DNA of 64,000 bases from Escherichia phage vB_EcoM_phAPEC6, in the sequence record MK817115.1. One strand, given 5' to 3'. Below the pieces are notes generated by a model that saw only the letters and a list, made by a program, of their open reading frames with translations, was not told the origin of the DNA and searched no databases. This document shows, piece by piece, positions 6,294 to 55,860 of the stretch; the stretch's first letter is position 1, and every line of letters starts with the position of its first letter. Made by a program: the position numbers and the translations under genes.

Positions 6294-6871
6294 TGTAGCA
6301 CCTTATCCATTGCTGCATTTAATGCTTTTAAACGATCAACATTCAAAGTATTGAAGATGTACGTTCCTAAAATGTGGAAATCGAATTGGTTCTTTTTGTA
6401 TGTATGATAAATTAAACTACAAAAAACAACAGTACTAAGAACCTCTTCAGGTATAACAGTGCTCATCTGGAACAGTTCTTCTTCAACTGTACTTGAATCT
6501 GGATTGATAGCTTTTAACACATACTCTTCATCACCGAATAGTACTTTAATATTATATAAAACACCAATAGTACTAATATGGAATGGGTGATGTGAAAAAC
6601 TTCCATCATCCTTAATTTGTATATCGGTTCTAATCTCACACTCTTCATTACTTTTACTTTTATTTTTTACAATACAAATATTTCTGGCCCCAGAAATAGT
6701 AAGAATACCGTGGTCGTAATATTCATTTGACCAACATTTAGATGAAATTGATACATCACGGATGAGATATTGTTTTTCAATTTCTTTCGCACTACCAACA
6801 ATTGATAGCATTTTTTTACTGATATCATATAATAACTGATGGCGTTCTGTCATATAACTATAAGCGTTCAT
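6290..6871 (-). CDS. family A paralog
   Basis: ORF track 193 aa; motif EEELFQMSTVIP. Confidence 0.7.
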   Translation of the reverse strand: MNAYSYMTERHQLLYDISKKMLSIVGSAKEIEKQYLIRDVSISSKCWSNEYYDHGILTISGARNICIVKNKSKSNEECEIRTDIQIKDDGSFSHHPFHISTIGVLYNIKVLFGDEEYVLKAINPDSSTVEEELFQMSTVIPEEVLSTVVFCSLIYHTYKKNQFDFHILGTYIFNTLNVDRLKALNAAMDKVLQ

Positions 6872-9706: not shown

Positions 9707-10193
9707 TAAAAGCCCTCTTTAATTCTTTTACATTTTTAATGAATACTTTCATTGCAGAAATCTCAAAAGATAATGTATTAAATTTGCAGTACTTTTTAAA
9801 GTACGACATTATGAATAACATTTTGAGTTCTTTTTCTGTATAAATTAAACTGTTTTGAAAGTAACTTTCTTCGGAAATGTCCGTAAGAAAAGAATAAAAT
9901 GTATTTTGCTTGTGCACAATTTTAATACTATCAGACCAAGATTTGTATGAAACGTAATCAGTACGTGCAAAATCATATAGTGAATTAGATGTATCTGTGT
10001 ATGTTTCCGAGAACACAATCTTATATATCTTATCTTGAATTCGAGAACATATGTACCTATGGTCATCTGTCTCACTGATTGCAATGTATCTATGGAGTAA
10101 ATCTTTATGAGCATTGATGAACTCAAACACTTCTAAACACTCCTTAGCGAACTTCATAGTTTCTCTGTACTTTCGGTTCATTAGTCTCTCCAA
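9690..10193 (-). CDS. family A paralog
   Basis: ORF track 167 aa; motif EESYFQNSLIYT. Confidence 0.7.
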   Translation of the reverse strand: MERLMNRKYRETMKFAKECLEVFEFINAHKDLLHRYIAISETDDHRYICSRIQDKIYKIVFSETYTDTSNSLYDFARTDYVSYKSWSDSIKIVHKQNTFYSFLTDISEESYFQNSLIYTEKELKMLFIMSYFKKYCKFNTLSFEISAMKVFIKNVKELKRAFNVHRK

Positions 10194-10594
10194 ACTTTAC
10201 CAGGGAAGTGTTTCTCGTAGTACTCATCATCACTTAACATATAATCAGGAGTTTCTACTTCTATGGTTTTGAAGATTGTTTCTGGAATGTGTGTGACTTT
10301 ATTGGGTTGTACTTTATGTTCGCGTAAAACCTTCTGTATCGCTCCTAGACGTTGTAAATCGATACATGTAGGAAAGACTAAGCTGTACTGAAATAACTCA
10401 TCAGGGGTCATTATAGACACATCTTTAGCTTGTTTGATTTGATAATTAGTACTAATGAATATATCAAATCCTTGTACAGCATTATAGCTTACATAGGTTG
10501 TTTTATTTTTGTCAATAGGAGCACTTAAACGATATCCATATATCCCGTGTTGGTCAACAAGACAGCGTTGCATAATTTTAATCATTTCTAACAT
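10181..10594 (-). CDS. family A paralog
   Basis: ORF track 137 aa; motif PDELFQYSLVFP. Confidence 0.7.
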   Translation of the reverse strand: MLEMIKIMQRCLVDQHGIYGYRLSAPIDKNKTTYVSYNAVQGFDIFISTNYQIKQAKDVSIMTPDELFQYSLVFPTCIDLQRLGAIQKVLREHKVQPNKVTHIPETIFKTIEVETPDYMLSDDEYYEKHFPGKVWRD

Positions 10595-10940
10595 AATTTA
10601 CCTCATATGTATTGTAACACCACGGTTTAACAATATCGATTTGTATATCATTTGCTTCATGAAAATGTTTAAGTACCTTCTGGTATTCCATTATTTCGTA
10701 CACATCTTCAGTACTTATAGTGCTCTCCTGAAATAATTCCTCTTCTGATAAAGTACTATAATCAGGGATTTTTATTTCTGAATATATATCATTTATCTTT
10801 CCATTATATTGATAAATCTGGATATAAAATTGATTGTATTCTGGAATATAGGTTACATAATGGTTGTGGTTGATTACATATCTTGAAACAAAGTATTCAG
10901 TACCATCAGTCATGTACTGAATTGTTGTCGTATTTTGCAT
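10578..10940 (-). CDS. family A paralog
   Basis: ORF track 120 aa; motif EEELFQESTIST. Confidence 0.7.
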   Translation of the reverse strand: MQNTTTIQYMTDGTEYFVSRYVINHNHYVTYIPEYNQFYIQIYQYNGKINDIYSEIKIPDYSTLSEEELFQESTISTEDVYEIMEYQKVLKHFHEANDIQIDIVKPWCYNTYEVNYVRND

Positions 10941-11873: not shown

Positions 11874-11932
11874 TGTGTTATAACCCTTTACAATTAATAT
11901 AAAGGGATTATATCACAAAAAATCGGTGGGTG

Positions 11933-37415: not shown

Positions 37416-37476
37416 GCGGGAGAACTATTCCCCCGCTCTATGTAAAACATTATACATTACTGGTTAGTACTGTCAA
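37416..37476 (-). promoter_or_regulatory. early-type promoter + 5' GC hairpin cassette (PeSL-like)
   Basis: TTGACA-N16-TATAAT then hairpin GCGGGAGAACTATTCCCCCGC. Confidence 0.55.
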
Positions 37477-37483
37477 ATAGTTT

Positions 37484-37741
37484 TTATGAAATATCTTCGA
37501 TGTAGTCGGCCCATTTCATTTTTTCAGTACTGTCAATGGCTACCGGATTATTTGGATCAAACCATTCACCATTACCGCAGTACATACCAACGGCTACGGT
37601 TTTATAGCCATCCTGGGCCGTACTCCACGACATTGCACGATAGATATGGCCTTTAACTGGTTGCAGTACTGGTAATGTTTTATGGTCTTCTACGTAGGCC
37701 ATAGCTTGAGGATTTACCCGATATTGTGTGAACTGTTCCAT
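37484..37741 (-). CDS. hypothetical protein (85 aa)
   Basis: ORF track; SD AAGGGGA; promoter TTGACA-N17-TGTAAT upstream. Confidence 0.6.
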   Translation of the reverse strand: MEQFTQYRVNPQAMAYVEDHKTLPVLQPVKGHIYRAMSWSTAQDGYKTVAVGMYCGNGEWFDPNNPVAIDSTEKMKWADYIEDIS

Positions 37742-37817
37742 TATGTTTCCCCTTGTAGTTAGTAAAGTTATTACATCAGTACTATCAAGCTATGTCAATA
37801 GTACTGAAATAAAACTT

Positions 37818-38042
37818 TTAGATTAGATTATTGATGCCTGAAATGGTAGACTCACTTTCTTCTTTCTCCCATTGGCGGTAGTACTTCCACGCTTCATGAT
37901 AGGTGGCGATCAGTTCATCTTTTTGATCCTGAGTACATGCCAGTACTGAATCACTGTAAGCGGTGTTATAGATAGAATCGAATGATTTCTTCTCTTCTGC
38001 CAGGTTAGCTACTTCCCGCATCAGTTCATCAAAGTTAGCCAT
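37818..38042 (-). CDS. hypothetical protein (~74 aa)
   Basis: ORF track 37818..38087; start moved to MANFDEL Met downstream of hairpin. Confidence 0.55.
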   Translation of the reverse strand: MANFDELMREVANLAEEKKSFDSIYNTAYSDSVLACTQDQKDELIATYHEAWKYYRQWEKEESESTISGINNLI

Positions 38043-38061
38043 TTTAGTACTCCTTATTAGT

Positions 38062-38120
38062 GGGGGAGGATATCTCCCCCTATGCAAAACATTATACTTT
38101 GTTTTAGTTATTATGCAAGT
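38062..38120 (-). promoter_or_regulatory. early-type promoter + 5' GC hairpin cassette (PeSL-like)
   Basis: TTGCAT-N16-TATAAT then perfect hairpin GGGGGAG-gatat-CTCCCCC. Confidence 0.55.
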
Positions 38121-38374
38121 ACTTTTTTCATATAAACATTAAATTCTACACCGCCGTAACCTTCTACGATGATATGTTTTGCGTTATCACGTTTGCACAT
38201 AGTGAAACCGTTGTTGATGTGTTCTGCATTTTCCAGGGCGACATCACCGATAGCGGCACATACGGCACTAATAACAGTATTCCGCAAAGTACTGGTATCA
38301 TTAGCGGTCATAGTAGTTTGCAGTACTACGTTGTCGTATACGTGTGCATTGATAGTGATTTCGATAGTGTTCAT
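38111..38374 (-). CDS. hypothetical protein (87 aa)
   Basis: ORF track; SD AGGAG. Confidence 0.6.
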   Translation of the reverse strand: MNTIEITINAHVYDNVVLQTTMTANDTSTLRNTVISAVCAAIGDVALENAEHINNGFTMCKRDNAKHIIVEGYGGVEFNVYMKKVLA

Positions 38375-38391
38375 GGTGTATCTCCTGCACA

Positions 38392-38455
38392 GTCGGGAGA
38401 ACTATTCCCCCGCTCTATGTAAAACATTATACGTTAATCTAACTACAATGCAAGT
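38392..38455 (-). promoter_or_regulatory. early-type promoter + 5' GC hairpin cassette (PeSL-like)
   Basis: TTGCAT..TATAAT then hairpin GAGCGGG..CCCGCTC. Confidence 0.55.
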
Positions 38456-38460
38456 ACTTT

Positions 38461-38652
38461 TTAAATTTTATTTCCGATATAGTCCGGTCTATTCTTTTCG
38501 GTCATACGCTTTGCTAATGTTTGCATATGGCTTATTGCGTTTAATGTGTCTTCCTCCAGGGATGAATCAACATAATCAGGATCATTCTTCACCTTGCAAT
38601 GATTATGATAGCGTAGTACTGCCAGTACTTTTTTAACTTCTTCTACTGTCAT
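38461..38652 (-). CDS. hypothetical protein (63 aa)
   Basis: ORF track; start overlaps stop of upstream gene. Confidence 0.55.
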   Translation of the reverse strand: MTVEEVKKVLAVLRYHNHCKVKNDPDYVDSSLEEDTLNAISHMQTLAKRMTEKNRPDYIGNKI

Positions 38653-38921
38653 AATAAGTACCCCACTTCGTTAGCTTTCAGGTTAGTATCAATCATCAGT
38701 GGATTTTTGTAGTTCACAAAACGATTAGTTTTCTCGATAGCGAATCCCATATAATCCAGCTTACTAACAGTACATTCATTCTTAAAAACTTCTTTCGCTG
38801 CATTGATGGCTGATTCAATTGATAACCGACCATCTAAGTTAATGTTTCCAAATGATCCACCAGCAGAAGTAGGATTACCGTTCATATCTTTAATGATCAT
38901 AGTAGCGGAGTAGCTAGACAT
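38649..38921 (-). CDS. hypothetical protein (90 aa)
   Basis: ORF track; SD AAGGAA. Confidence 0.6.
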   Translation of the reverse strand: MSSYSATMIIKDMNGNPTSAGGSFGNINLDGRLSIESAINAAKEVFKNECTVSKLDYMGFAIEKTNRFVNYKNPLMIDTNLKANEVGYLL

Positions 38922-38943
38922 AATTTTGTTTCCTTTTAGTATC

Positions 38944-39002
38944 GGGGAGAACTATTCTCCCCTTGATGTAAACTATTATACAGTACTAAGATACTTTGTC
39001 AA
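38944..39002 (-). promoter_or_regulatory. early-type promoter + 5' GC hairpin cassette (PeSL-like)
   Basis: TTGACA-N16-TATAAT then hairpin GGGGAGAA-cta-TTCTCCCC. Confidence 0.55.
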
Positions 39003-39005
39003 TAC

Positions 39006-39227
39006 TTAATTACGTTTAAAATGATATGTGCCTTTATCATCCTGTACGCCCCATACTGATTTACCATCAACACCAGTGAAACCGGATTGTAATTCAATAT
39101 GGAAACCATTATTATCAACTACAAAAACTTTTTTATTTTCATCCCGATAACATTGATATTCTGAATCAACATTAAAGGCCGCATCATTCAGAAGATTGGA
39201 AGCGTAAATGCAAGTCATTGTAGTCAT
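39006..39227 (-). CDS. hypothetical protein (~73 aa)
   Basis: ORF track 39006..39302; start moved to MTTMTCIYAS Met behind SD AAGGAA. Confidence 0.55.
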   Translation of the reverse strand: MTTMTCIYASNLLNDAAFNVDSEYQCYRDENKKVFVVDNNGFHIELQSGFTGVDGKSVWGVQDDKGTYHFKRN

Positions 39228-39247
39228 GATTTTATTCCTTATTGCCA

Positions 39248-39308
39248 GGGAGAACCATTTCCCCCTCTCGATATAAAACATTATACTTGATTCTAAGTAC
39301 AATGCAAG
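39248..39308 (-). promoter_or_regulatory. early-type promoter + 5' GC hairpin cassette (PeSL-like)
   Basis: TTGCAT-N16-TATAAT then hairpin GGGAGAACCATTTCCCCC. Confidence 0.55.
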
Positions 39309-39422
39309 TACTTTTTATCAAATACTTTAAAATAGTTTTCAGTACTGAATACTTATATAATAGATACACTTATGCACCCTGTGGGTCAGTGAGTTATCTC
39401 TCAATGAATATATATTAGCAAA

Positions 39423-39450
39423 GGGACTGACCGGAGTCAATCCCTTTTTT
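39423..39450. terminator. intrinsic terminator hairpin (conserved repeat-element copy 2)
   Basis: GGGACTGAC-cgga-GTCAATCCC + TTTTTT on plus; lies just downstream of kinase-like gene stop on minus. Confidence 0.45.
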
Positions 39451-39458
39451 AATCTTTT

Positions 39459-40043
39459 TTATCGTGTTATAGTTACGGCTTTTACATCACGCTTTTTATA
39501 GTACTGATTCCAGATATTGCGGGTTAAACCGTAATCAAGTACTTTAATAAGTCCATTACGATCCTGGCCGATATTCTGTTTTCTGATATCTCTTATCGTT
39601 AGTGTTGATAATGTATCATCGACGTGTTGTAGTGCATCAGCAAAGCGGTGCTGGCGTTCAATGGCATTACGTTTAATATTGTACTTTAATTCGTTGCACG
39701 CGTTAACGTGCTTCACACTGCCTTTACTTGCAGTACTCAACCGATCCATAACGATAAACATATTATCAGGATCGCATAAATGCATATGCACCTTTGCAAA
39801 GTACTGTTTCAATTGAGGGCGGTCATAGTCTAAAAAATTCCATACCTTACATTCAGTTTCATTTTGTTCTACACCCGCATCACAATTGGCGACCTTAATC
39901 ACTAACCGATCATTTAAAGCGAATACGATACGGGAAGAACCCGCCCCGATGATCTCCAGGCCAGCTAACCGACAAGCTGAAAGGATCTCTTTGTTGGTTT
40001 CCATTTCTGACAGTGTACGGATGAATTTAGTATAATTACGCAT
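39459..40043 (-). CDS. putative Ser/Thr protein kinase-like protein
   Basis: ORF track 39459..40100, start moved to Met behind SD AAGGAG; Gly-rich loop IGAGSSRIVF, VIKV lysine, catalytic-loop-like RDIRKQNIG, DYG (DFG-like) motif. Confidence 0.5.
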   Translation of the reverse strand: MRNYTKFIRTLSEMETNKEILSACRLAGLEIIGAGSSRIVFALNDRLVIKVANCDAGVEQNETECKVWNFLDYDRPQLKQYFAKVHMHLCDPDNMFIVMDRLSTASKGSVKHVNACNELKYNIKRNAIERQHRFADALQHVDDTLSTLTIRDIRKQNIGQDRNGLIKVLDYGLTRNIWNQYYKKRDVKAVTITR

Positions 40044-40074
40044 TGCATGTTCTCCTTGAGTTAATGAAACTATC

Positions 40075-40317
40075 TTACAGTACTTTACTATCAATGGCAA
40101 CCACTTTTTTCACACTAACCGCGTGAATCACTTCCTTAGTGTTTTTAGTACTGAATACTTTCGCTGTTCCTTGTTCTACTGCAATGCGATAACGACCGTT
40201 AACATCAACCATATTAATAAAGTCCGGTGTACTAAACCGAGTAGTACGGCATTTCAGTACTGTTAACAATTCCACCAGCGATGTAGTTTCTTTGATACGT
40301 TTTTCTAAAGTAATCAT
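40075..40317 (-). CDS. hypothetical protein (80 aa)
   Basis: ORF track; promoter TTGACA-N17-TACTAT upstream. Confidence 0.6.
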   Translation of the reverse strand: MITLEKRIKETTSLVELLTVLKCRTTRFSTPDFINMVDVNGRYRIAVEQGTAKVFSTKNTKEVIHAVSVKKVVAIDSKVL

Positions 40318-40375
40318 TTTGTTTTCCCCCGTGTTGGTATGTACATATAGTACTAAAACATTTGAGTACTGTCAA

Positions 40376-40594
40376 TTAGATAATAGAATATTTCTTTAGT
40401 GATAATGCGTCTTCTGTCGGTTGATATTCTACACCGTTCCCGTTATCAACCTTAGTGAGTAAACCTTTATCAATGAGTTTTTTGATGGTACGGTTTCCCT
40501 GTTGAAAACTGGTGAAGTGTGAATCATTACGAAAGGTATAACCGTGCTTCACTGCTTCATCAATAGTTTTCTTTTCGATTTTAGATAATTTCAT
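40376..40594 (-). CDS. hypothetical protein (~72 aa)
   Basis: ORF track 40376..40654; start moved to MKLSKIEK Met because promoter TTGACA-N17-TATTAT overlaps the track N-terminus. Confidence 0.55.
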   Translation of the reverse strand: MKLSKIEKKTIDEAVKHGYTFRNDSHFTSFQQGNRTIKKLIDKGLLTKVDNGNGVEYQPTEDALSLKKYSII

Positions 40595-40650
40595 TTTGTT
40601 TCTCTCTCTGTGTTGGTATAGATACATAATACTAAAACAATTGAGTACTG

Positions 40651-40905
40651 TCAACGTGATATTAGTTTTATTTTTTTATTGTATTGTTGGTGTTCATATA
40701 GATTAATTTTTCCAGTACTCTCAATTACTATTCTATTGTTAGTGTCTACATCGATAACACGTAGTTTCCCGTTGCTTAACTTCCTGGGTAATAGACTACC
40801 ATTAATAAACTCATTAGCAAGCTGTACGGCCTTTGTGATGATTCTCTGTGGTGCTTTATAGTGTACCCGCAAGATATTATCTTTAGATAGTTGTACCTTC
40901 ATCAT
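40651..40905 (-). CDS. hypothetical protein (84 aa)
   Basis: ORF track; SD AGGAT. Confidence 0.6.
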   Translation of the reverse strand: MMKVQLSKDNILRVHYKAPQRIITKAVQLANEFINGSLLPRKLSNGKLRVIDVDTNNRIVIESTGKINLYEHQQYNKKIKLISR

Positions 40906-40920
40906 TTTAGTTTATCCTAT

Positions 40921-40946
40921 AAAAAAAGGCGGGAACTGAACCCGCC
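40921..40946 (-). terminator. intrinsic terminator
   Basis: hairpin GGCGGG-aactgaa-CCCGCC with T-run on minus side (A7 on plus) directly after stop of 40970..41365. Confidence 0.5.
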
Positions 40947-40969
40947 GTGTTGTTAGTACTGCAAAGTTA

Positions 40970-41365
40970 TTAGATAACCTGGCGGCGTTTACTGTATACT
41001 GTTACACGGTTTCCTTTACGGTCATGACGGATCTCTTTCTGGTTACGAATCAGTTCACTTGGACGCTTAAGGTTTGCCAGGTGATCCGCGTGAGTCCATG
41101 CATTTGCGTTAACTGTAACTTCAATATCAGAACCTTTCAAAAAGTCATCTTGAGCGTTCAGTACTTCAGCCAGTTCTTGAGCTTGCTTTAGTTCTGCTTC
41201 AGTAAGTACAGGCTCAGGTGAATTCACAATATCAGAGATCTCTTTGAACTGTACCGCCCAGCGTTGTCCTTTCGGTGCATCTTTGCCCATGTCTTTAAAT
41301 GTTTCACCTTCTTCACGAGCAACGATGCGAGCTTGTTCACGGGTAGCGAAGAATTTAGTAATCAT
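40970..41365 (-). CDS. hypothetical protein; paralog of 52987..53253
   Basis: ORF track; shares FATREQAR..TFKDMG..RKGNRVTVY with 52987..53253. Confidence 0.6.
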   Translation of the reverse strand: MITKFFATREQARIVAREEGETFKDMGKDAPKGQRWAVQFKEISDIVNSPEPVLTEAELKQAQELAEVLNAQDDFLKGSDIEVTVNANAWTHADHLANLKRPSELIRNQKEIRHDRKGNRVTVYSKRRQVI

Positions 41366-41464
41366 GGTGTACATCCTATTAGTTAAGTTAATTAGTACTA
41401 CAAGTTAGAGTCTATTATAAAGTACTATCTGGGCAATGTCAAATAGTACTTTAAATGGATTCTA

Positions 41465-41788
41465 TTACATGTCTTTTTTACGTTTTACATCGTAGTAACG
41501 AACTGTAATTTCTTTGTTGATCTCATCCTCAATTCTGTGTAGTACTTTCTCTTTCGGGTTGAAACCTATTACAGTTTCTTTAATGATCTCCAAGCCCGTG
41601 TATTCGCCTTGTGTACCGTAACCGTAAGTAAAGGTTTCATGTCCCAGGTCTTCCCAGCGGTCACCAATCAATGCAGACACGTAGCATGAGTGGTAAGTAT
41701 TGCCGTGGCTATCAGTCCACCGATTAACTTTAATGTCAAAGGAAGTTACAATTTTCATTTCTACTTTCTGGGCAAGGATCATAGTCAT
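41465..41788 (-). CDS. hypothetical protein; paralog of 47657..48001
   Basis: ORF track 107 aa; shared GNTY.S, YGYG, DVKRKKD with 47657..48001. Confidence 0.6.
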   Translation of the reverse strand: MTMILAQKVEMKIVTSFDIKVNRWTDSHGNTYHSCYVSALIGDRWEDLGHETFTYGYGTQGEYTGLEIIKETVIGFNPKEKVLHRIEDEINKEITVRYYDVKRKKDM

Positions 41789-41875
41789 TTTAATTTCTCT
41801 CTTTTTGTTAGGAAGGGAACCATTCCCCTCACTTGATGTAAACTATTATACAGTACTAAGATACTTTGTCAATAC

Positions 41876-42151
41876 TTAAGTATTGTAAATGTCGTGAATA
41901 GTGATAAAGTTTTTACGACCGTAAACATGTAAATCAGTATCAATGTAGTGCTTATCAAGTACATCCTCGACGCTTAAAGCCGTGTCGTGAATATCTTCAT
42001 AGAATTGTGGATCTACAATCTTACTTAAATCATCCGGCGTTAACTTATCATTGAGCCATTGCACCGCCTGGATATCTGCATCACGTTTCCAGTCTTCCAG
42101 GTTAGTAGTCAGTACTTGCTCGATTTCGTTAGCTGTCAGTAGAATCCGCAT
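41876..42151 (-). CDS. hypothetical protein (91 aa)
   Basis: ORF track; promoter + hairpin GTGGGGAActatTCCCCAC upstream. Confidence 0.6.
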   Translation of the reverse strand: MRILLTANEIEQVLTTNLEDWKRDADIQAVQWLNDKLTPDDLSKIVDPQFYEDIHDTALSVEDVLDKHYIDTDLHVYGRKNFITIHDIYNT

Positions 42152-42240
42152 TTTAATTTCTCTCTTTGTTAGGTGGGGAACTATTCCCCACTTGATGTAA
42201 AATATTATACAGTACTAAAAACTATTGTCAAACTATTTTA

Positions 42241-42441
42241 TCAAATTGTTTCCCATTTCATGTTACCCGCTTTACGCTGTGAAACAGGAATAAACATGTT
42301 ATTAATGTTACTAATATAACCGACCTGTAAGTCACGCTGTGAACCATACGCCCGACTTGCTGCATTTTTAGCACCGCGTTCTGATTTATAAACGCCGCTG
42401 GATACTGTAAAGCCTACTACACCGAAAGTAAAATGTTTCAT
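42241..42441 (-). CDS. hypothetical protein (66 aa)
   Basis: ORF track; SD AGAGGA; preceded by tandem promoters and structured leader. Confidence 0.6.
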   Translation of the reverse strand: MKHFTFGVVGFTVSSGVYKSERGAKNAASRAYGSQRDLQVGYISNINNMFIPVSQRKAGNMKWETI

Positions 42442-42507
42442 TTTGTATTCCTCTTTGTGGTTGATGTAAGTATTATACTCGTTTAATTTCTATTGTCAAA
42501 CTATTTT

Positions 42508-42581
42508 ATCAGGGGAGGTTTTCGTATGTCTTACTCCTGGACTACTTAACGGGGTTACTTATTTCGTTCCCCGTCCTGATG
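42508..42581 (-). ncRNA. conserved structured 5' leader element, copy 1
   Basis: ~75 nt between two sigma70-like promoters; closing stem ATCAGG/CCTGAT with two internal hairpins; near-identical copy at 52314-52389, diverged copy near 49351-49421. Confidence 0.35.
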
Positions 42582-42726
42582 TAAAACATTATACTTGATT
42601 CTAAGTACAATGCAAGTACTTTTTAAAAATAGTTTTCAGTACTTGATAGTACTAGCCACCAGCATATAATAGATACATTTATGCACCCTGTGGGTTAGAT
42701 TGTTTCTATGCATATATAATAGCAAA

Positions 42727-42754
42727 GGGACTGACCGGAGTCAATCCCTTTTTT
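42727..42754. terminator. intrinsic terminator hairpin (conserved repeat-element copy 3)
   Basis: GGGACTGAC-cgga-GTCAATCCC + TTTTTT. Confidence 0.45.
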
Positions 42755-42762
42755 AAATCTTT

Positions 42763-42912
42763 TTAAACTTGTTTTGGGTTGCGATATGTGATAGCGTTCG
42801 GGTACATTTGTTTAATGTTATTCCATGCCTGGTTAACATTGTAACCACTTGATCGAATCAGTTGGTTACTTCCTACGCCCTGAAACACTACTTCGAATAA
42901 GAATTCTTTCAT
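42763..42912 (-). CDS. small protein (49 aa), hypothetical
   Basis: own reading: MKEFLFEVVFQGVGSNQLIRSSGYNV...; ATGA overlap with upstream ORF; below track cutoff. Confidence 0.35.
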   Translation of the reverse strand: MKEFLFEVVFQGVGSNQLIRSSGYNVNQAWNNIKQMYPNAITYRNPKQV

Positions 42913-43079
42913 GCTGCAATCCCCTCTGATTTACCTTTACGCCAGGCGTTAGCCAGTTCATTACGTTGCCATACATCCAATGCAATGTATAGTTTAGCAG
43001 TATCCCCTTTAGGGTATTCGCCAGTAGTGCCTAACCGATAAAACAGATCTTTCAGTACTGATAATTCTACTTGGATCAT
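42909..43079 (-). CDS. small protein (56 aa), hypothetical
   Basis: own reading: MIQVELSVLKDLFYRLGTTGEYPKGD...; ATGA overlaps both neighbours. Confidence 0.35.
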   Translation of the reverse strand: MIQVELSVLKDLFYRLGTTGEYPKGDTAKLYIALDVWQRNELANAWRKGKSEGIAA

Positions 43080-43168
43080 TGTATTACTCCTGATTGTGTT
43101 AGTACTTCTACGATGGCATGAATGATCATAAGTACAGCTAACACAACAATCATCGGATTCATTTGCAT
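43076..43168 (-). CDS. hydrophobic micro-protein (30 aa), putative membrane peptide
   Basis: own reading: MQMNPMIVVLAVLMIIHAIVEVLTQSGVIQ; SD GAAGGAG 8 nt upstream. Confidence 0.35.
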   Translation of the reverse strand: MQMNPMIVVLAVLMIIHAIVEVLTQSGVIQ

Positions 43169-43185
43169 AAGCTGTACTCCTTCTA

Positions 43186-43398
43186 TTAATCTTTCAGCCA
43201 ATGATCTTGAATGAATTTTTCACAGAATCCCTGTTTCATAGATTCTAACAGGCGTTCACGGTGAGCGGCGGCATATTGCTCAGTACTATGCGTTACGCCA
43301 GGTTGATAACGTGAAACACCGTCCGGTCCGATATATTGAACATCCCACGGTTTTTCGTTAGTATCAGACCATTTACGAACGATTAGTTGACCTTGCAT
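43186..43398 (-). CDS. hypothetical protein (70 aa)
   Basis: ORF track; SD AGAGGAA. Confidence 0.6.
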   Translation of the reverse strand: MQGQLIVRKWSDTNEKPWDVQYIGPDGVSRYQPGVTHSTEQYAAAHRERLLESMKQGFCEKFIQDHWLKD

Positions 43399-43415
43399 GT
43401 TTCTTTCCTCTTAGT

Positions 43416-43476
43416 GGGGAGAATCATTTCTCCCCTTCATGTAAACTATTATACAGTACTATAATCTATTGTCCAG
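43416..43476 (-). promoter_or_regulatory. early-type promoter + 5' GC hairpin cassette (PeSL-like)
   Basis: TGGACA-N16-TATAAT then hairpin GGGGAGAA-tcat-TTCTCCCC. Confidence 0.55.
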
Positions 43477-43483
43477 TACTTTT

Positions 43484-43672
43484 TTACAGTTTATGAATCA
43501 ATTCTTTATCTAAGCGATAGCGTACATTATTAATGGTAACAGCATTATTTTTAATGCTACGCTGTACTGGCCCACCAGCAATAACAAACGTTGCTTTATT
43601 ACCCCGAACAATGATAGCACTACCAGGATTGCCAAAATCATCTTGTACTAAAATACTTGATAAGTTTTCCAT
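43484..43672 (-). CDS. hypothetical protein (~62 aa)
   Basis: ORF track 43484..43678; start moved 2 codons to Met behind SD AGAGGAA. Confidence 0.55.
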   Translation of the reverse strand: MENLSSILVQDDFGNPGSAIIVRGNKATFVIAGGPVQRSIKNNAVTINNVRYRLDKELIHKL

Positions 43673-43750
43673 TTTCATTTCCTCTTAGTAGGGGAAGACG
43701 TTTCCCCTTGATGTAAGTACTATAACAGTACTGGAAACTAAATGCAAGTA

Positions 43751-44107
43751 CTACGATAAAATCATGATAGGATATTCACTATCGATCAGTACTTCAAATC
43801 CAAAACTTTCATACCATTCTTTAAGATTAAAGGCGTTATCTTCTCCCGTATCGCATTCTAAAATGATACAATCTGAATCATCGGCGGCATCAATAAAGGC
43901 GTTCATCAATTCCGTACCTTCACCATTACCCCGACTAGCAGGATCAACATAAAGAGAATCAATAAACGCTACACGGTCATAATCAAGATCCGGTGCAATG
44001 ATTCCACGTTTAACAAACCAGTACTGCAATTGTGCTACTTTGCCCTGTACTTGATAGCCAGTGATCTCGCCATTGTCAGTAGTACGCGTGGTATGTTGTA
44101 TTCCCAT
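43751..44107 (-). CDS. GNAT-family N-acetyltransferase-like protein
   Basis: ORF track 118 aa; acetyl-CoA-binding-like RGNGEGTELM and C-terminal WYESFGFE resembling GNAT motifs A/B. Confidence 0.45.
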   Translation of the reverse strand: MGIQHTTRTTDNGEITGYQVQGKVAQLQYWFVKRGIIAPDLDYDRVAFIDSLYVDPASRGNGEGTELMNAFIDAADDSDCIILECDTGEDNAFNLKEWYESFGFEVLIDSEYPIMILS

Positions 44108-44170
44108 GATTTCTATCCTCAGTTAAGATATAAAATATTATACACTATCTTTCAGTACTGTCAATACTTT

Positions 44171-44428
44171 TTATCTCATAGATCTATGCCAACAATTACG
44201 CGGATCTCTTTTAAAAGTACTATCATGATCCTCCTGGCAAGTTATGCAATACTTACATCCCTTAACAGCCTGGCGGCGATTCTCAGGGATTTTATCGCCA
44301 CAGTCGAGGCAATGTATCAGTGATTCTATTTGTGCGTTAATTTGCTTTCTAGCGTGGTTTACGGCGGCCTGAATCACTGCGTTAATCTCGTCTTGCTCGG
44401 CCCCGTCTTTCGCGAATCCTACAGCCAT
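44171..44428 (-). CDS. TraR/DksA-type C4 zinc-finger protein
   Basis: ORF track 85 aa; CLDCGDKIPENRRQAVKGCKYCITCQ (CxxC-N17-CxxC, as in TraR/DksA family). Confidence 0.45.
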   Translation of the reverse strand: MAVGFAKDGAEQDEINAVIQAAVNHARKQINAQIESLIHCLDCGDKIPENRRQAVKGCKYCITCQEDHDSTFKRDPRNCWHRSMR

Positions 44429-44625
44429 TATTTTAACTTTTTTCTGTCATTGATTAATGCTTTCAGTACTATACTAATGATTTGCAATGATTCATCAATA
44501 ACTATAAAATTATTTTCTTTCATTAGATGATAGTTACCATTGATATTATATTCTAACGAGTACTGTTTACGTTTAATTTTTGATAATGTTTCTATTTGTT
44601 TTTGTACTGATTTCATGCTAATCAT
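44428..44625 (-). CDS. hypothetical protein (65 aa)
   Basis: ORF track; translationally coupled to downstream gene (TAATG). Confidence 0.55.
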   Translation of the reverse strand: MISMKSVQKQIETLSKIKRKQYSLEYNINGNYHLMKENNFIVIDESLQIISIVLKALINDRKKLK

Positions 44626-44730
44626 TGTTAAACGTCCTGTAACGCATTCTAACGAGATAAACGGTTTAGTACTGGCATTGTATAGGGTAATGGATTAAAG
44701 CCCACCAGCGTTAACCAGTGGGCTATAATC

Positions 44731-44874
44731 TTACATCTTGCGGATAATCTTAACAGTATCTTTCACCGATTTACCGTTTTGCTGACATTGTTCGATCATC
44801 GCGTATTGTTCTGCGGTCAGATCCTCGCCAGTTTTTGCCAGTACTGCATCGATGAATGAATCTAGTGCGATCAT
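44731..44874 (-). CDS. small protein (47 aa), hypothetical
   Basis: own reading: MIALDSFIDAVLAKTGEDLTAEQYAMIEQCQQNGK...; own promoter TTGACA-N16-TATAAT upstream. Confidence 0.35.
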   Translation of the reverse strand: MIALDSFIDAVLAKTGEDLTAEQYAMIEQCQQNGKSVKDTVKIIRKM

Positions 44875-44973
44875 TTTGTTTCTCTCTTAGGTTAAGTTAA
44901 CTACTGTTTATAAAACTTATTATACAGTACTATCAAACTATGTCAATATCTTTAATAGTACTGGTAATATATT

Positions 44974-45153
44974 TTAGCGGTAGTCGTCGTATGCTTTATT
45001 CACCTGGCGAATGTAACTTTCAAAGGCTTCGTCTACCGTTTCATACTCCCGAACATAATCACCATAGGAAACTACATACATCCCTTTTTGATCTTCAAAC
45101 GTCATGATGATAGAATCCAGGCCGATGATTTCAGTTTTTGCGATGATAGCCAT
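44974..45153 (-). CDS. small protein (59 aa), hypothetical
   Basis: own reading: MAIIAKTEIIGLDSIIMTFEDQKGMYVV...; SD AGGAA; own promoter TTGACA-N16-TATAAT. Confidence 0.4.
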   Translation of the reverse strand: MAIIAKTEIIGLDSIIMTFEDQKGMYVVSYGDYVREYETVDEAFESYIRQVNKAYDDYR

Positions 45154-45234
45154 TTTTAATTCCTTAGTAGTGTAGTTGATAAAACTTATTATACAGTACT
45201 ATCAAACTATGTCAATAGTACTGTGATAATATTT

Positions 45235-45447
45235 TTAGTTAATGATAGTCAGTGTAAAATTGTAATCCCCTGCCTGGTATAGTACTTTGTCGCCGAACGT
45301 ACCAACACGTTTCATATTGCAATAGATACCCATAACACTTTTTACATCTTTGATATTCCGAACGCCTGTGATATCCTTGTTGAAATTTTCATGATCAGAA
45401 AATAAAACTTGTTTTGCATTTTTCAGTACAGTGCAGATATTAGCCAT
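45235..45447 (-). CDS. hypothetical protein (70 aa)
   Basis: ORF track; SD AGAGAA. Confidence 0.6.
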   Translation of the reverse strand: MANICTVLKNAKQVLFSDHENFNKDITGVRNIKDVKSVMGIYCNMKRVGTFGDKVLYQAGDYNFTLTIIN

Positions 45448-45467
45448 TTTGATTTCTCTTTGTTAGT

Positions 45468-45527
45468 GGGGAGAACTATTCTCCCCTTGATGTAACTTAT
45501 TATACAGTACTATAATCTATTGTCAAA
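45468..45527 (-). promoter_or_regulatory. early-type promoter + 5' GC hairpin cassette (PeSL-like)
   Basis: TTGACA-N16-TATAAT then hairpin GGGGAGAA-cta-TTCTCCCC. Confidence 0.55.
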
Positions 45528-55000: not shown

Positions 55001-55860
55001 AGACATATCTACGTCCAAAATCCACCCAGGGTAACTACGCCCAAAATCCGTCAGTACTATACCATAGATCTATCTTTTGAAAGGGAGTATTCAGTACTGC
55101 CATCATAGCCCTCACTATGTTACCCTAGGAGGATGAAGACTATCATGTAGTACTGAATACTGTTAGAGGGAATCCACCAGCACAAGCTGGTGGCATAATG
55201 CTTTAGATTAAAATCAGTACTGACACCATTCTGTTAATATCAGTACTGTTATTACGATTTTCATATGAGGTTCAAAAAGATGTACCACCACAGGAGGAAC
55301 TATCTTTTCTGTACTGTCTCACGACAGGAGGTAGAGTAAATGAATTGTTCGCAGCAACTCATCACCCTATGTAGAACATTATACAGTACTGAATCATAAT
55401 GTCAATAGCTTTCTTTCATTATTCAGTACTGATATTCTTGAGAACTACCCGACTACAAACATCATTATATCCCACAAATCATAAACGTCCCAACGTAAAT
55501 TTCAACTTTCGAAGATCCAACTTTTATTTCATAGGTACTCCAAAATTTTTAGGATCGAGATTTAGGATGGAGTACTAACCAACTTTTTGCTGGAGCCTCA
55601 AGGGGTAATGGAATTTTACCCCGAAGGGTAAAGGGGTAATTGAAATTAAGGTGAAAGTAATAATTCAGTACTAATCATTGCGTGATTACTTTTGATTACA
55701 TTTGATGTAATTTGAAAAATGGAAAAGGAGCTTGGAAACTACAAAGTACGGCAGACTTCCTCTGCCTACTTAGTGGCATATCAGTACTGAATCCTTCCCG
55801 TGCATTCTTGAGCATTCTTGTCTATACTAATCAGTACTGAATCATATATAATCATTCTGT

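Follow-up and report, generated by a model that had tools for sequence, protein, structure and literature searches.

The window analysed here is a 64,000-nucleotide stretch of DNA from Escherichia phage vB_EcoM_phAPEC6 (sequence record MK817115.1), which belongs to the genus Asteriusvirus, jumbo phages of E. coli with genomes of ~350 kb. On its minus strand, positions 39459-40043 hold the gene of interest, which encodes a 194-residue minimal protein-kinase-like (PKL) enzyme of the family PHROG 4301 and is orthologous to Sharanji gp063 (WNN14351.1) and Turkey5 XMR01560.1. The open reading frame (ORF) is intact, running from the ATG at 40041-40043 through 194 codons to the TAA stop codon at 39459-39461. 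A Shine-Dalgarno sequence, AGGAG, can be read at 40052-40056 on the same strand, 8 nt 5' of the ATG, and the UE-S1 record shows a ribosome-binding site at the corresponding position. A longer frame starting from the TTG at 40100 was considered and rejected, as it runs into the upstream gene and the annotated orthologs do not use the TTG start; the 585-nt version of the coding sequence (CDS) is annotated alike in the Turkey5, UE-S1 and Sharanji records. Pairwise comparisons among the window gene and these three CDSs gave ratios of nonsynonymous to synonymous substitution (dN/dS) of 0.05-0.13, with dS of 0.13-0.37 and dN of 0.007-0.040. The low dN/dS among the four orthologs thus demonstrates a true protein-coding gene under strong purifying selection.

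The region around the gene is shared widely among related phages. Positions 38000-42000 match 88 phage records, the best at ~92-95% identity (slurp01, JP4, UE-S1, Sharanji, G17 and others), and no paralog of the gene was found within the 64-kb window. The Asteriusvirus orthologs (Sharanji gp063, Turkey5 XMR01560.1 and PBECO4 L7TKF0) have the same length and the same synteny. At the protein level, identity is ~96-97% to Sharanji, UE-S1 and Turkey5, 97-98% to two BFVD entries and 89-94% to the closest database clusters. Some orthologs read I-D-I-S-K-T-N where the window protein has R-D-I-R-K-Q-N; apart from this catalytic-loop variant, no substantive difference was observed. The identification as a kinase is not new for this gene. 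The annotations of Turkey5, Turkey3, fEgEco12 and ph0011 name the ortholog either a Ser/Thr protein kinase or a kinase-domain protein, the BFVD label of the PBECO4 copy is 'Protein kinase domain-containing protein', and the Sharanji paper calls WNN14351.1 a second protein kinase with function unknown (PMC11895373). What is new is the recognition of a truncated, non-Hanks PKL enzyme in a very large family that is unannotated in PHROGs and separate from that of the T7 gp0.7 kinase (T7K), together with the invariance of catalytic and several family-specific residues and the tandem domain arrays in many relatives.

An earlier note, made from this DNA alone, had described the product as a phage protein-kinase-like enzyme on the basis of four motifs, and all four are found in the window sequence at the places and in the order given there. 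The Gly-rich (P-)loop IGAGSSRIVF (residues 32-41; 39921-39950, on the minus strand like all the motifs) lies between strands β1 and β2. It is followed by VIKV (residues 48-51; 39891-39902), which forms strand β3 in the model and contains the ATP-anchoring Lys50. The catalytic loop RDIRKQNIG (residues 151-159; 39567-39593), with Asp152, Asn157 and Gly159, aligns to HRDxKxxN, and DYG (residues 170-172; 39528-39536), which provides the DFG-equivalent Mg-binding Asp, aligns to the DFG of MKK4/MKK7. A further motif, QNETE (residues 60-64; 39852-39866), is located in helix αC, where it contributes Glu64 and the family-specific pair Gln60-Asn61.

The conservation of these residues was counted in an alignment of 152 PHROG 4301 members guided by a hidden Markov model. 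R38, K50, G57, Q60 and E64 are each present in 152/152 sequences. D170 and G172 are kept in 150 members each and G159 in 149, followed by N61 (148/152), A52 (147/152), G35 (145/152), and D152 and S36 (144/152 each). Position 171 is Tyr in 120 of the 152 and Phe in 17. Position 151, the Arg of 'RD', is mostly Gly among these members, and position 157 is His in 58, Asn in 43, Ser in 30 and Gln in 14, the window protein, like its close relatives, having Asn. The Gly-loop signature of the family is GxGSSRxV, and the common signature as a whole reads GxGSSRxV...K.A.N..G..QN..E...D.....G...LDYG. Two invariant features are the family's own, namely an Arg for the third Gly of the Gly-loop and a Gln-Asn pair one helical turn before the αC Glu. 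Judged from the aligned sequences, the four active-site residues, that is the β3 Lys, the αC Glu, the catalytic Asp and the DFG Asp, are kept. Since they are retained across 152 relatives, a pseudokinase is strongly argued against. As the catalytic Lys and Glu and both Asp residues are present and conserved, the description of the locus as a phage gene for a protein-kinase-like enzyme holds.

Structure prediction, which had been suggested as a check on that description, gave a confident kinase-like fold. With 48 diverse relatives from the profile search in the alignment, the AlphaFold2 model reached a mean predicted local distance difference test (pLDDT) score of 94.0 and a predicted template modelling score (pTM) of 0.90; with just 12 close homologs the pLDDT was 51 and the model was unusable. 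The N-terminal part of the model comprises two helices, β1 (30-34), the Gly-loop, β2 (38-42) and β3 (47-52, with K50). A long αC (residues 55-73) carrying E64 comes next, and then β4/β5, with β5 at 96-100. Helices 109-120 and 130-145 correspond to αD/αE and precede the catalytic loop (151-159), and the C-terminal end consists of two short strands, β7-β8, at 158-160 and 166-168, the DYG at 170-172 and one short helix at 175-182. This arrangement is that of the bilobal PKL fold, with a β-rich N-lobe holding the Gly-loop and αC, and a reduced C-lobe holding αE, the catalytic loop and a DFG-bearing β-hairpin. The Foldseek neighbours included OSR1 (E = 1.1e-4), Legionella Lpg2603, MEK1, NEK7, RIO2 and PRPK. 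Among the PDB matches listed, PRPK (6wqx_D) had the highest query-normalised TM-score, 0.46, and PRPK, RIO2 and Ark1 were all present in the fold-match lists. According to the model, the fold is protein-kinase-like, yet near no single solved family. Very probably, the product is an enzyme that has the PKL fold and an intact active site.

Sequence searches reached kinases as well. As a single sequence, the protein scored 17.9 bits (E = 0.0022) against the Pfam family Pkinase, under the gathering score of 31.7 bits, and PK_Tyr_Ser-Thr (E = 0.0032) was the only other notable Pfam match; 5 of 61 sampled relatives matched Pkinase at E ≤ 0.01, the best at 5.7e-6. When the PDB was searched with the single sequence, the best 60 of 82 matches (E ≤ 10) were all protein kinases, with a best E of 0.013. 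In the three alignments examined, RDIRKQN fell on HRDxKxxN and DYG on DFG, the catalytic loop being aligned to MKK4/MKK7 and to one kinase whose sequence has been deposited twice (9ymt, 4eqm). A profile of 12 sequences matched MKK4 at E = 1.9e-4 and MKK7 at E ~4e-4, the latter aligned from the Gly-loop region past DFG. A profile of 61 sequences matched MKK4 at E = 7.7e-5 and the N-lobe of SteC, a minimal Salmonella effector kinase, at E = 0.003, and in this family profile the K50 column pairs with the Lys of SteC VVKI. As the profile matches were stronger than those of the single sequence, and those named were to kinases, the kinase reading gains support. The earlier note had let its claim hang on the outcome of profile searches and on the catalytic Asp and Lys; the searches lead to kinases (MKK4, MKK7 and SteC), and equivalents of both residues are present. 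Weak generic matches to the PknB PASTA kinase family in NCBIfam (E = 0.049) and to the PD-T4-6 kinase in PADLOC (E = 2e-4) were uninformative on function.

The more specific label 'Hanks-type Ser/Thr kinase' held up only in part. The window protein contains subdomains I-III and VIb-VII in variant form (GAGSSR, VIKV, E64, RDIRKQN and DYG), and its chain stops 22 residues past DYG. Subdomains VIII-XI, which comprise the activation segment with its APE motif, helices αF-αI, the αF Asp and the subdomain XI Arg, are present neither in the sequence nor in the model. Because of this early end and of a score below the Pfam threshold, the protein is, as far as sequence and model tell, not a canonical Hanks-type kinase. 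Hence the motif order and the kinase-like fold remain of the label, and the canonical assignment is given up, with subdomains VIII-XI absent and a score of 17.9 against 31.7 bits.

PHROG 4301, which was matched at E = 7.9e-42 (with residues 3-188 aligned to positions 13-185 of the 225-position profile), carries the label 'unknown function' in PHROGs and was assigned to 61 of 61 sampled relatives. An exhaustive profile search of 1.84 billion cluster representatives returned 2,065 at E ≤ 1e-3, of which 248 reached E ≤ 1e-10, and most of these relatives were 170-280 aa long. The named relatives in BFVD are phage-derived (Klebsiella phage RaK2, Pectobacterium phage CBB with two paralogs, Ralstonia phage RP12 and others); the model of RaK2 H6X4G3 gave a TM-score of 0.85 at 36% identity to the window protein. 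The contigs examined resemble the early regions of jumbo phages, with tiny, densely packed ORFs on the same strand. PHROG 4301 is a very large family, found mostly in phage-like contexts and distinct from the T7K family. Most of its distant members differ from the window protein in having His, Ser or Gln for Asn157 and a catalytic loop longer by one residue.

Many relatives consist of one polypeptide with 2-4 complete tandem kinase-like domains (P0021, P0023, P0028, P0030, P0032, P0036 and ~25 others). P0023, for example, has 923 aa and 4 domain copies, and most copies in such tandem proteins keep QN..E and LDYG. They may be real poly-kinases or fused gene calls. In addition, a distant member (P0186) on a 291-kb contig (L009, GCA_902730635.1) lies near genes for a KTI12/AAA_33 P-loop kinase-like protein and an RtcB RNA ligase (6348-6827 and 10135-10765). 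This hints at an RNA-repair neighbourhood in that phage-like contig, which was not seen in the window's phage.

As to the genomic context, the annotated genes within several kb in the Turkey5, UE-S1 and Sharanji records are all small and lie on the same strand as the kinase-like gene. Immediately upstream is an 80-aa ORF (40075-40317, minus strand) that belongs to no Pfam family and is separated from the kinase ATG by a gap of 31 nt. The nearest good σ70-like promoter, a predicted TTGACA-17-TACTAT site matching the consensus at 10/12 positions (40347-40375, minus strand), lies upstream of this two-gene unit. Because the gap is 31 nt and no promoter of quality lies within it, the 80-aa ORF and the kinase-like gene are probably co-transcribed. 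Just past the stop codon, a G+C-containing, terminator-like stem-loop, AAAGGGA...TCCCTTT, can be read from the sequence at 39420-39447; in UE-S1 the corresponding position is annotated as a terminator. A simple terminator scan did not flag the stem-loop on the minus strand, as its T-run is on the plus strand. The likely unit would therefore comprise the promoter, the 80-aa ORF, the kinase-like gene and the stem-loop, and would be read by the host σ70 RNA polymerase.

Perfect TTGACA-N16-18-TATAAT sites occur 14 times in the window against 0.17 expected, an enrichment of ~80-fold. Thirteen of the 14 are on the minus strand, which is the strand of the gene, and ten lie within 37.4-45.5 kb (37449-45526, minus); the others are at 11907, 52278, 52468 (plus strand) and 55378. 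Most of these sites share the same spacer, which ends in AGTACTG right before TATAAT. From their sequences they look like a phage-specific 'super-consensus' class of early promoters. Because of this dense cluster of perfect σ70 promoters, early expression of the kinase-like gene is plausible; the many promoters fit its placement in an 'early block' by the earlier note, the timing itself being read from sequence only. A second motif, AGTACTGAATAC, with the palindromic core TTCAGTACTGAA, is present window-wide in 28 copies at ≤1 mismatch, compared with 0.6 expected (for example at 39335-39352, 40147-40158 and 55087-55160). Some copies fall within ORFs, and the motif is similar to the AGTACTG-TATAAT spacer; it may represent a promoter variant or an operator.

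Other neighbours of the gene were also inspected. Beside a 52%-identical kinase relative, no homolog of the 80-aa upstream ORF was detectable. Two genes upstream, a 72-aa ORF (40376-40594, minus) is called 'transcriptional regulator' in Turkey5 and has only sub-threshold Pfam matches (linker histone, E = 0.04). An 84-aa ORF (40651-40905, minus) contains a ParE-like toxin domain (Pfam PF24732, E = 3e-10, above the family cut-off). A ParE-like gene likewise precedes the kinase homolog in two related metagenomic contigs (L006 and L008), either directly or at a distance of 1.4 kb. It was considered as a functional partner of the kinase and set aside, its recurrence nearby in three related contigs being most simply synteny among related jumbo phages.

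We propose that the gene encodes a catalytically competent minimal PKL phosphotransferase, which is expressed early and acts on Ser/Thr of host and/or phage proteins. The probability of this statement as a whole is estimated at about 0.55. The gene would be transcribed early in infection by the host σ70 RNA polymerase, from its two-gene unit. Following established kinase enzymology, Mg-ATP would be bound between the lobes beneath the GAGSSR loop, the K50-E64 pair would orient the α- and β-phosphates, Mg would be held by D170, in the window subfamily with N157, and D152 would serve as the catalytic base. Because an activation loop is lacking and the RD arginine is not conserved, we further propose that the enzyme would be constitutively active once made and would not need phosphorylation of an activation loop. 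The phosphate acceptors would be Ser/Thr residues in proteins of the host, the phage or both, and their modification would serve takeover or counter-defence. Protein Ser/Thr is rated the likeliest acceptor because the profiles point to protein kinases and because other minimal kinases devoid of the loop, namely SteC, OspG and NleH, which have no activation segment, are genuine protein kinases.

Several points weigh against this proposal. The entire substrate-binding part of canonical protein kinases is absent, and the curated Pkinase threshold of Pfam is failed by the window protein. In the region of β3 the HMMER alignment with MKK7 is shifted out of register, so that K50 was identified from its conservation, its β3 place in the model and the SteC alignment. 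Across most of the wider family, the metal-binding Asn157 gives way to His, Ser or Gln. The early timing is drawn from promoter consensus only, and in the literature on PHROG 4301 or Asteriusvirus early transcription no experimental work was found, the Sharanji genome note being the only item.

The best-surviving alternative, which we regard as possible if unlikely, is an active PKL-fold kinase with a non-protein substrate, such as a small molecule, a nucleotide or signalling molecule, a lipid, a sugar or RNA, comparable with aminoglycoside phosphotransferases (APH) or the archaeal tRNA kinase Ark1. Such an enzyme would share the fold and active site described above, but the profile matches are to protein kinases and not to the APH or choline-kinase families, and the protein also lacks the helical subdomain with which APH-type enzymes bind their substrates. 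Moreover, the minimal effector kinases named above, which are likewise without an activation segment, act on proteins, and the same is true of T7K (PMC13645617).

A related and distinctly unlikely idea is that PHROG 4301 may be a large clade of minimal kinases with an active-site solution of its own, whose substrate is perhaps no conventional protein Ser/Thr. This solution may consist of the Gly-loop Arg, the Gln-Asn preceding the αC Glu, and a His that usually takes the place of the catalytic-loop Asn, and the substrate may be a component of a defence system, an immune signalling nucleotide or RNA. If true, it would amount to a second phosphorylation-based strategy of counter-defence or takeover, independent of T7K, in jumbo phages with both kinases.

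It is quite improbable that the protein is an ATPase or nucleotide-dependent switch, like Bud32/PRPK or RIO, or a pseudokinase scaffold. Its small size, the lack of a substrate-binding lobe and the appearance of PRPK and RIO2 among the structural neighbours would fit a switch of this kind. However, the Lys, Glu, catalytic Asp and DFG Asp are kept almost without exception in 152 diverged relatives, and no conserved partner gene as in KEOPS accompanies the gene, its neighbours being unrelated small ORFs.

T7 gp0.7 had been put forward as an analogy by the earlier note. Experimentally, T7K is a promiscuous kinase that disarms several bacterial defence systems by mass phosphorylation, its family is PHROG 2828 (Pfam model PF27024), and the DFG-like motif of that family is of the DPV type (PMC13645617). 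We consider it very improbable that the window protein is a diverged T7K member, hyperpromiscuous and disarming defence systems. In both, the architecture is truncated, the domain extending only a little way beyond the DFG-like motif. In BFVD, T7K-family proteins (Pantoea phage SK1, Yersinia fPS-53, Pectobacterium Q19 and A0A7L7SMK1) are neighbours at E ~4e-6 to 6e-5 with query-normalised TM-scores of ~0.55, matches as good as or better than those of any solved cellular kinase, and hhalign pairs the N-lobes of the window protein and T7K sensibly. Nevertheless, BLASTP against T7K gave nothing significant (E ≥ 5), and the hhalign probability was 2.4-3.3% against T7K or an 11-sequence T7K alignment and 0.8% against the T7K-like gp144 of Sharanji, the T7K profile being shallow in that nearly all T7K homologs found were at least 69% identical. 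Neither the window protein at E ≤ 1 nor any of the 61 relatives matched phrog_2828. The Pfam release used lacks PF27024 (T7 gp0.7 itself matches nothing there), and the comparison accordingly rests on BLASTP, hhalign and PHROGs. D213-P214 is invariant in the T7K alignment, whereas the window protein has DYG.

A separate T7K homologue is also encoded by Sharanji. This gp144 (WNN14432.1) is a 224-aa T7K-like protein at 66182-66856 of OR545507.1 (L005 23183-23857), ~46 kb from gp063, so that an equivalent gene would fall outside the window. Both families thus coexist in Sharanji, and Asteriusvirus phages may carry two unrelated minimal kinases. The T7 gp0.7 analogy appears, from sequence and model, to extend to architecture and fold only; with no significant sequence relationship and an assignment to PHROG 4301 rather than PHROG 2828, family membership is not demonstrable. 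Finally, a chance resemblance of the motifs in an unrelated small protein, for which the weak single-sequence scores could speak (a sub-threshold E of 0.002 in Pfam and a best E of 0.013 in the PDB), is effectively refuted by the confident kinase-like model and the conservation in 152 relatives; profile searches raise the signal, and the motif residues coincide exactly with the family's invariant columns.

Phage kinases are a topical subject, as T7K disarms bacterial defences (PMC13645617). Besides its T7K-like kinase, Sharanji has a second, unrelated minimal kinase that comes from a family of thousands of diverged members, encountered in this analysis solely in phage-like contexts. PHROG 4301 has no dedicated model in the Pfam copy used, and a kinase label would improve the annotation of jumbo phages. 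From its substrates, once found, it could be judged whether phages other than T7-like ones widely use phosphorylation for takeover or counter-defence.

Compared with known systems, the proposed minimal PKL phosphotransferase resembles Hanks kinases (PF00069; MKK4/MKK7, PknB) in its Gly-loop, β3 Lys, αC Glu, catalytic Asp with an Asn at +5, and Asp-aromatic-Gly motif, as well as in the order of the motifs and the fold elements. It departs from them in the invariant Arg for the third Gly of the Gly-loop, in having no His before 'RD' and in the position of the catalytic-loop Lys, which is at Asp +3 and not +2; unlike in the Hanks HRDxKxxN, the 'RD' Arg and the catalytic-loop Asn are not conserved in PHROG 4301. 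With T7K it would have early expression as a phage gene in common, and it shares the fold and a minimal kinase domain that stops shortly past the DFG-like motif, but it differs in having DYG instead of DPV, in belonging to another PHROG and in carrying no C-terminal shut-off/DNA-binding domain. A further likeness is to SteC, OspG and NleH, and to Bud32/PRPK, RIO and Ark1, which at ~170-230 aa likewise present a kinase core without an activation loop.

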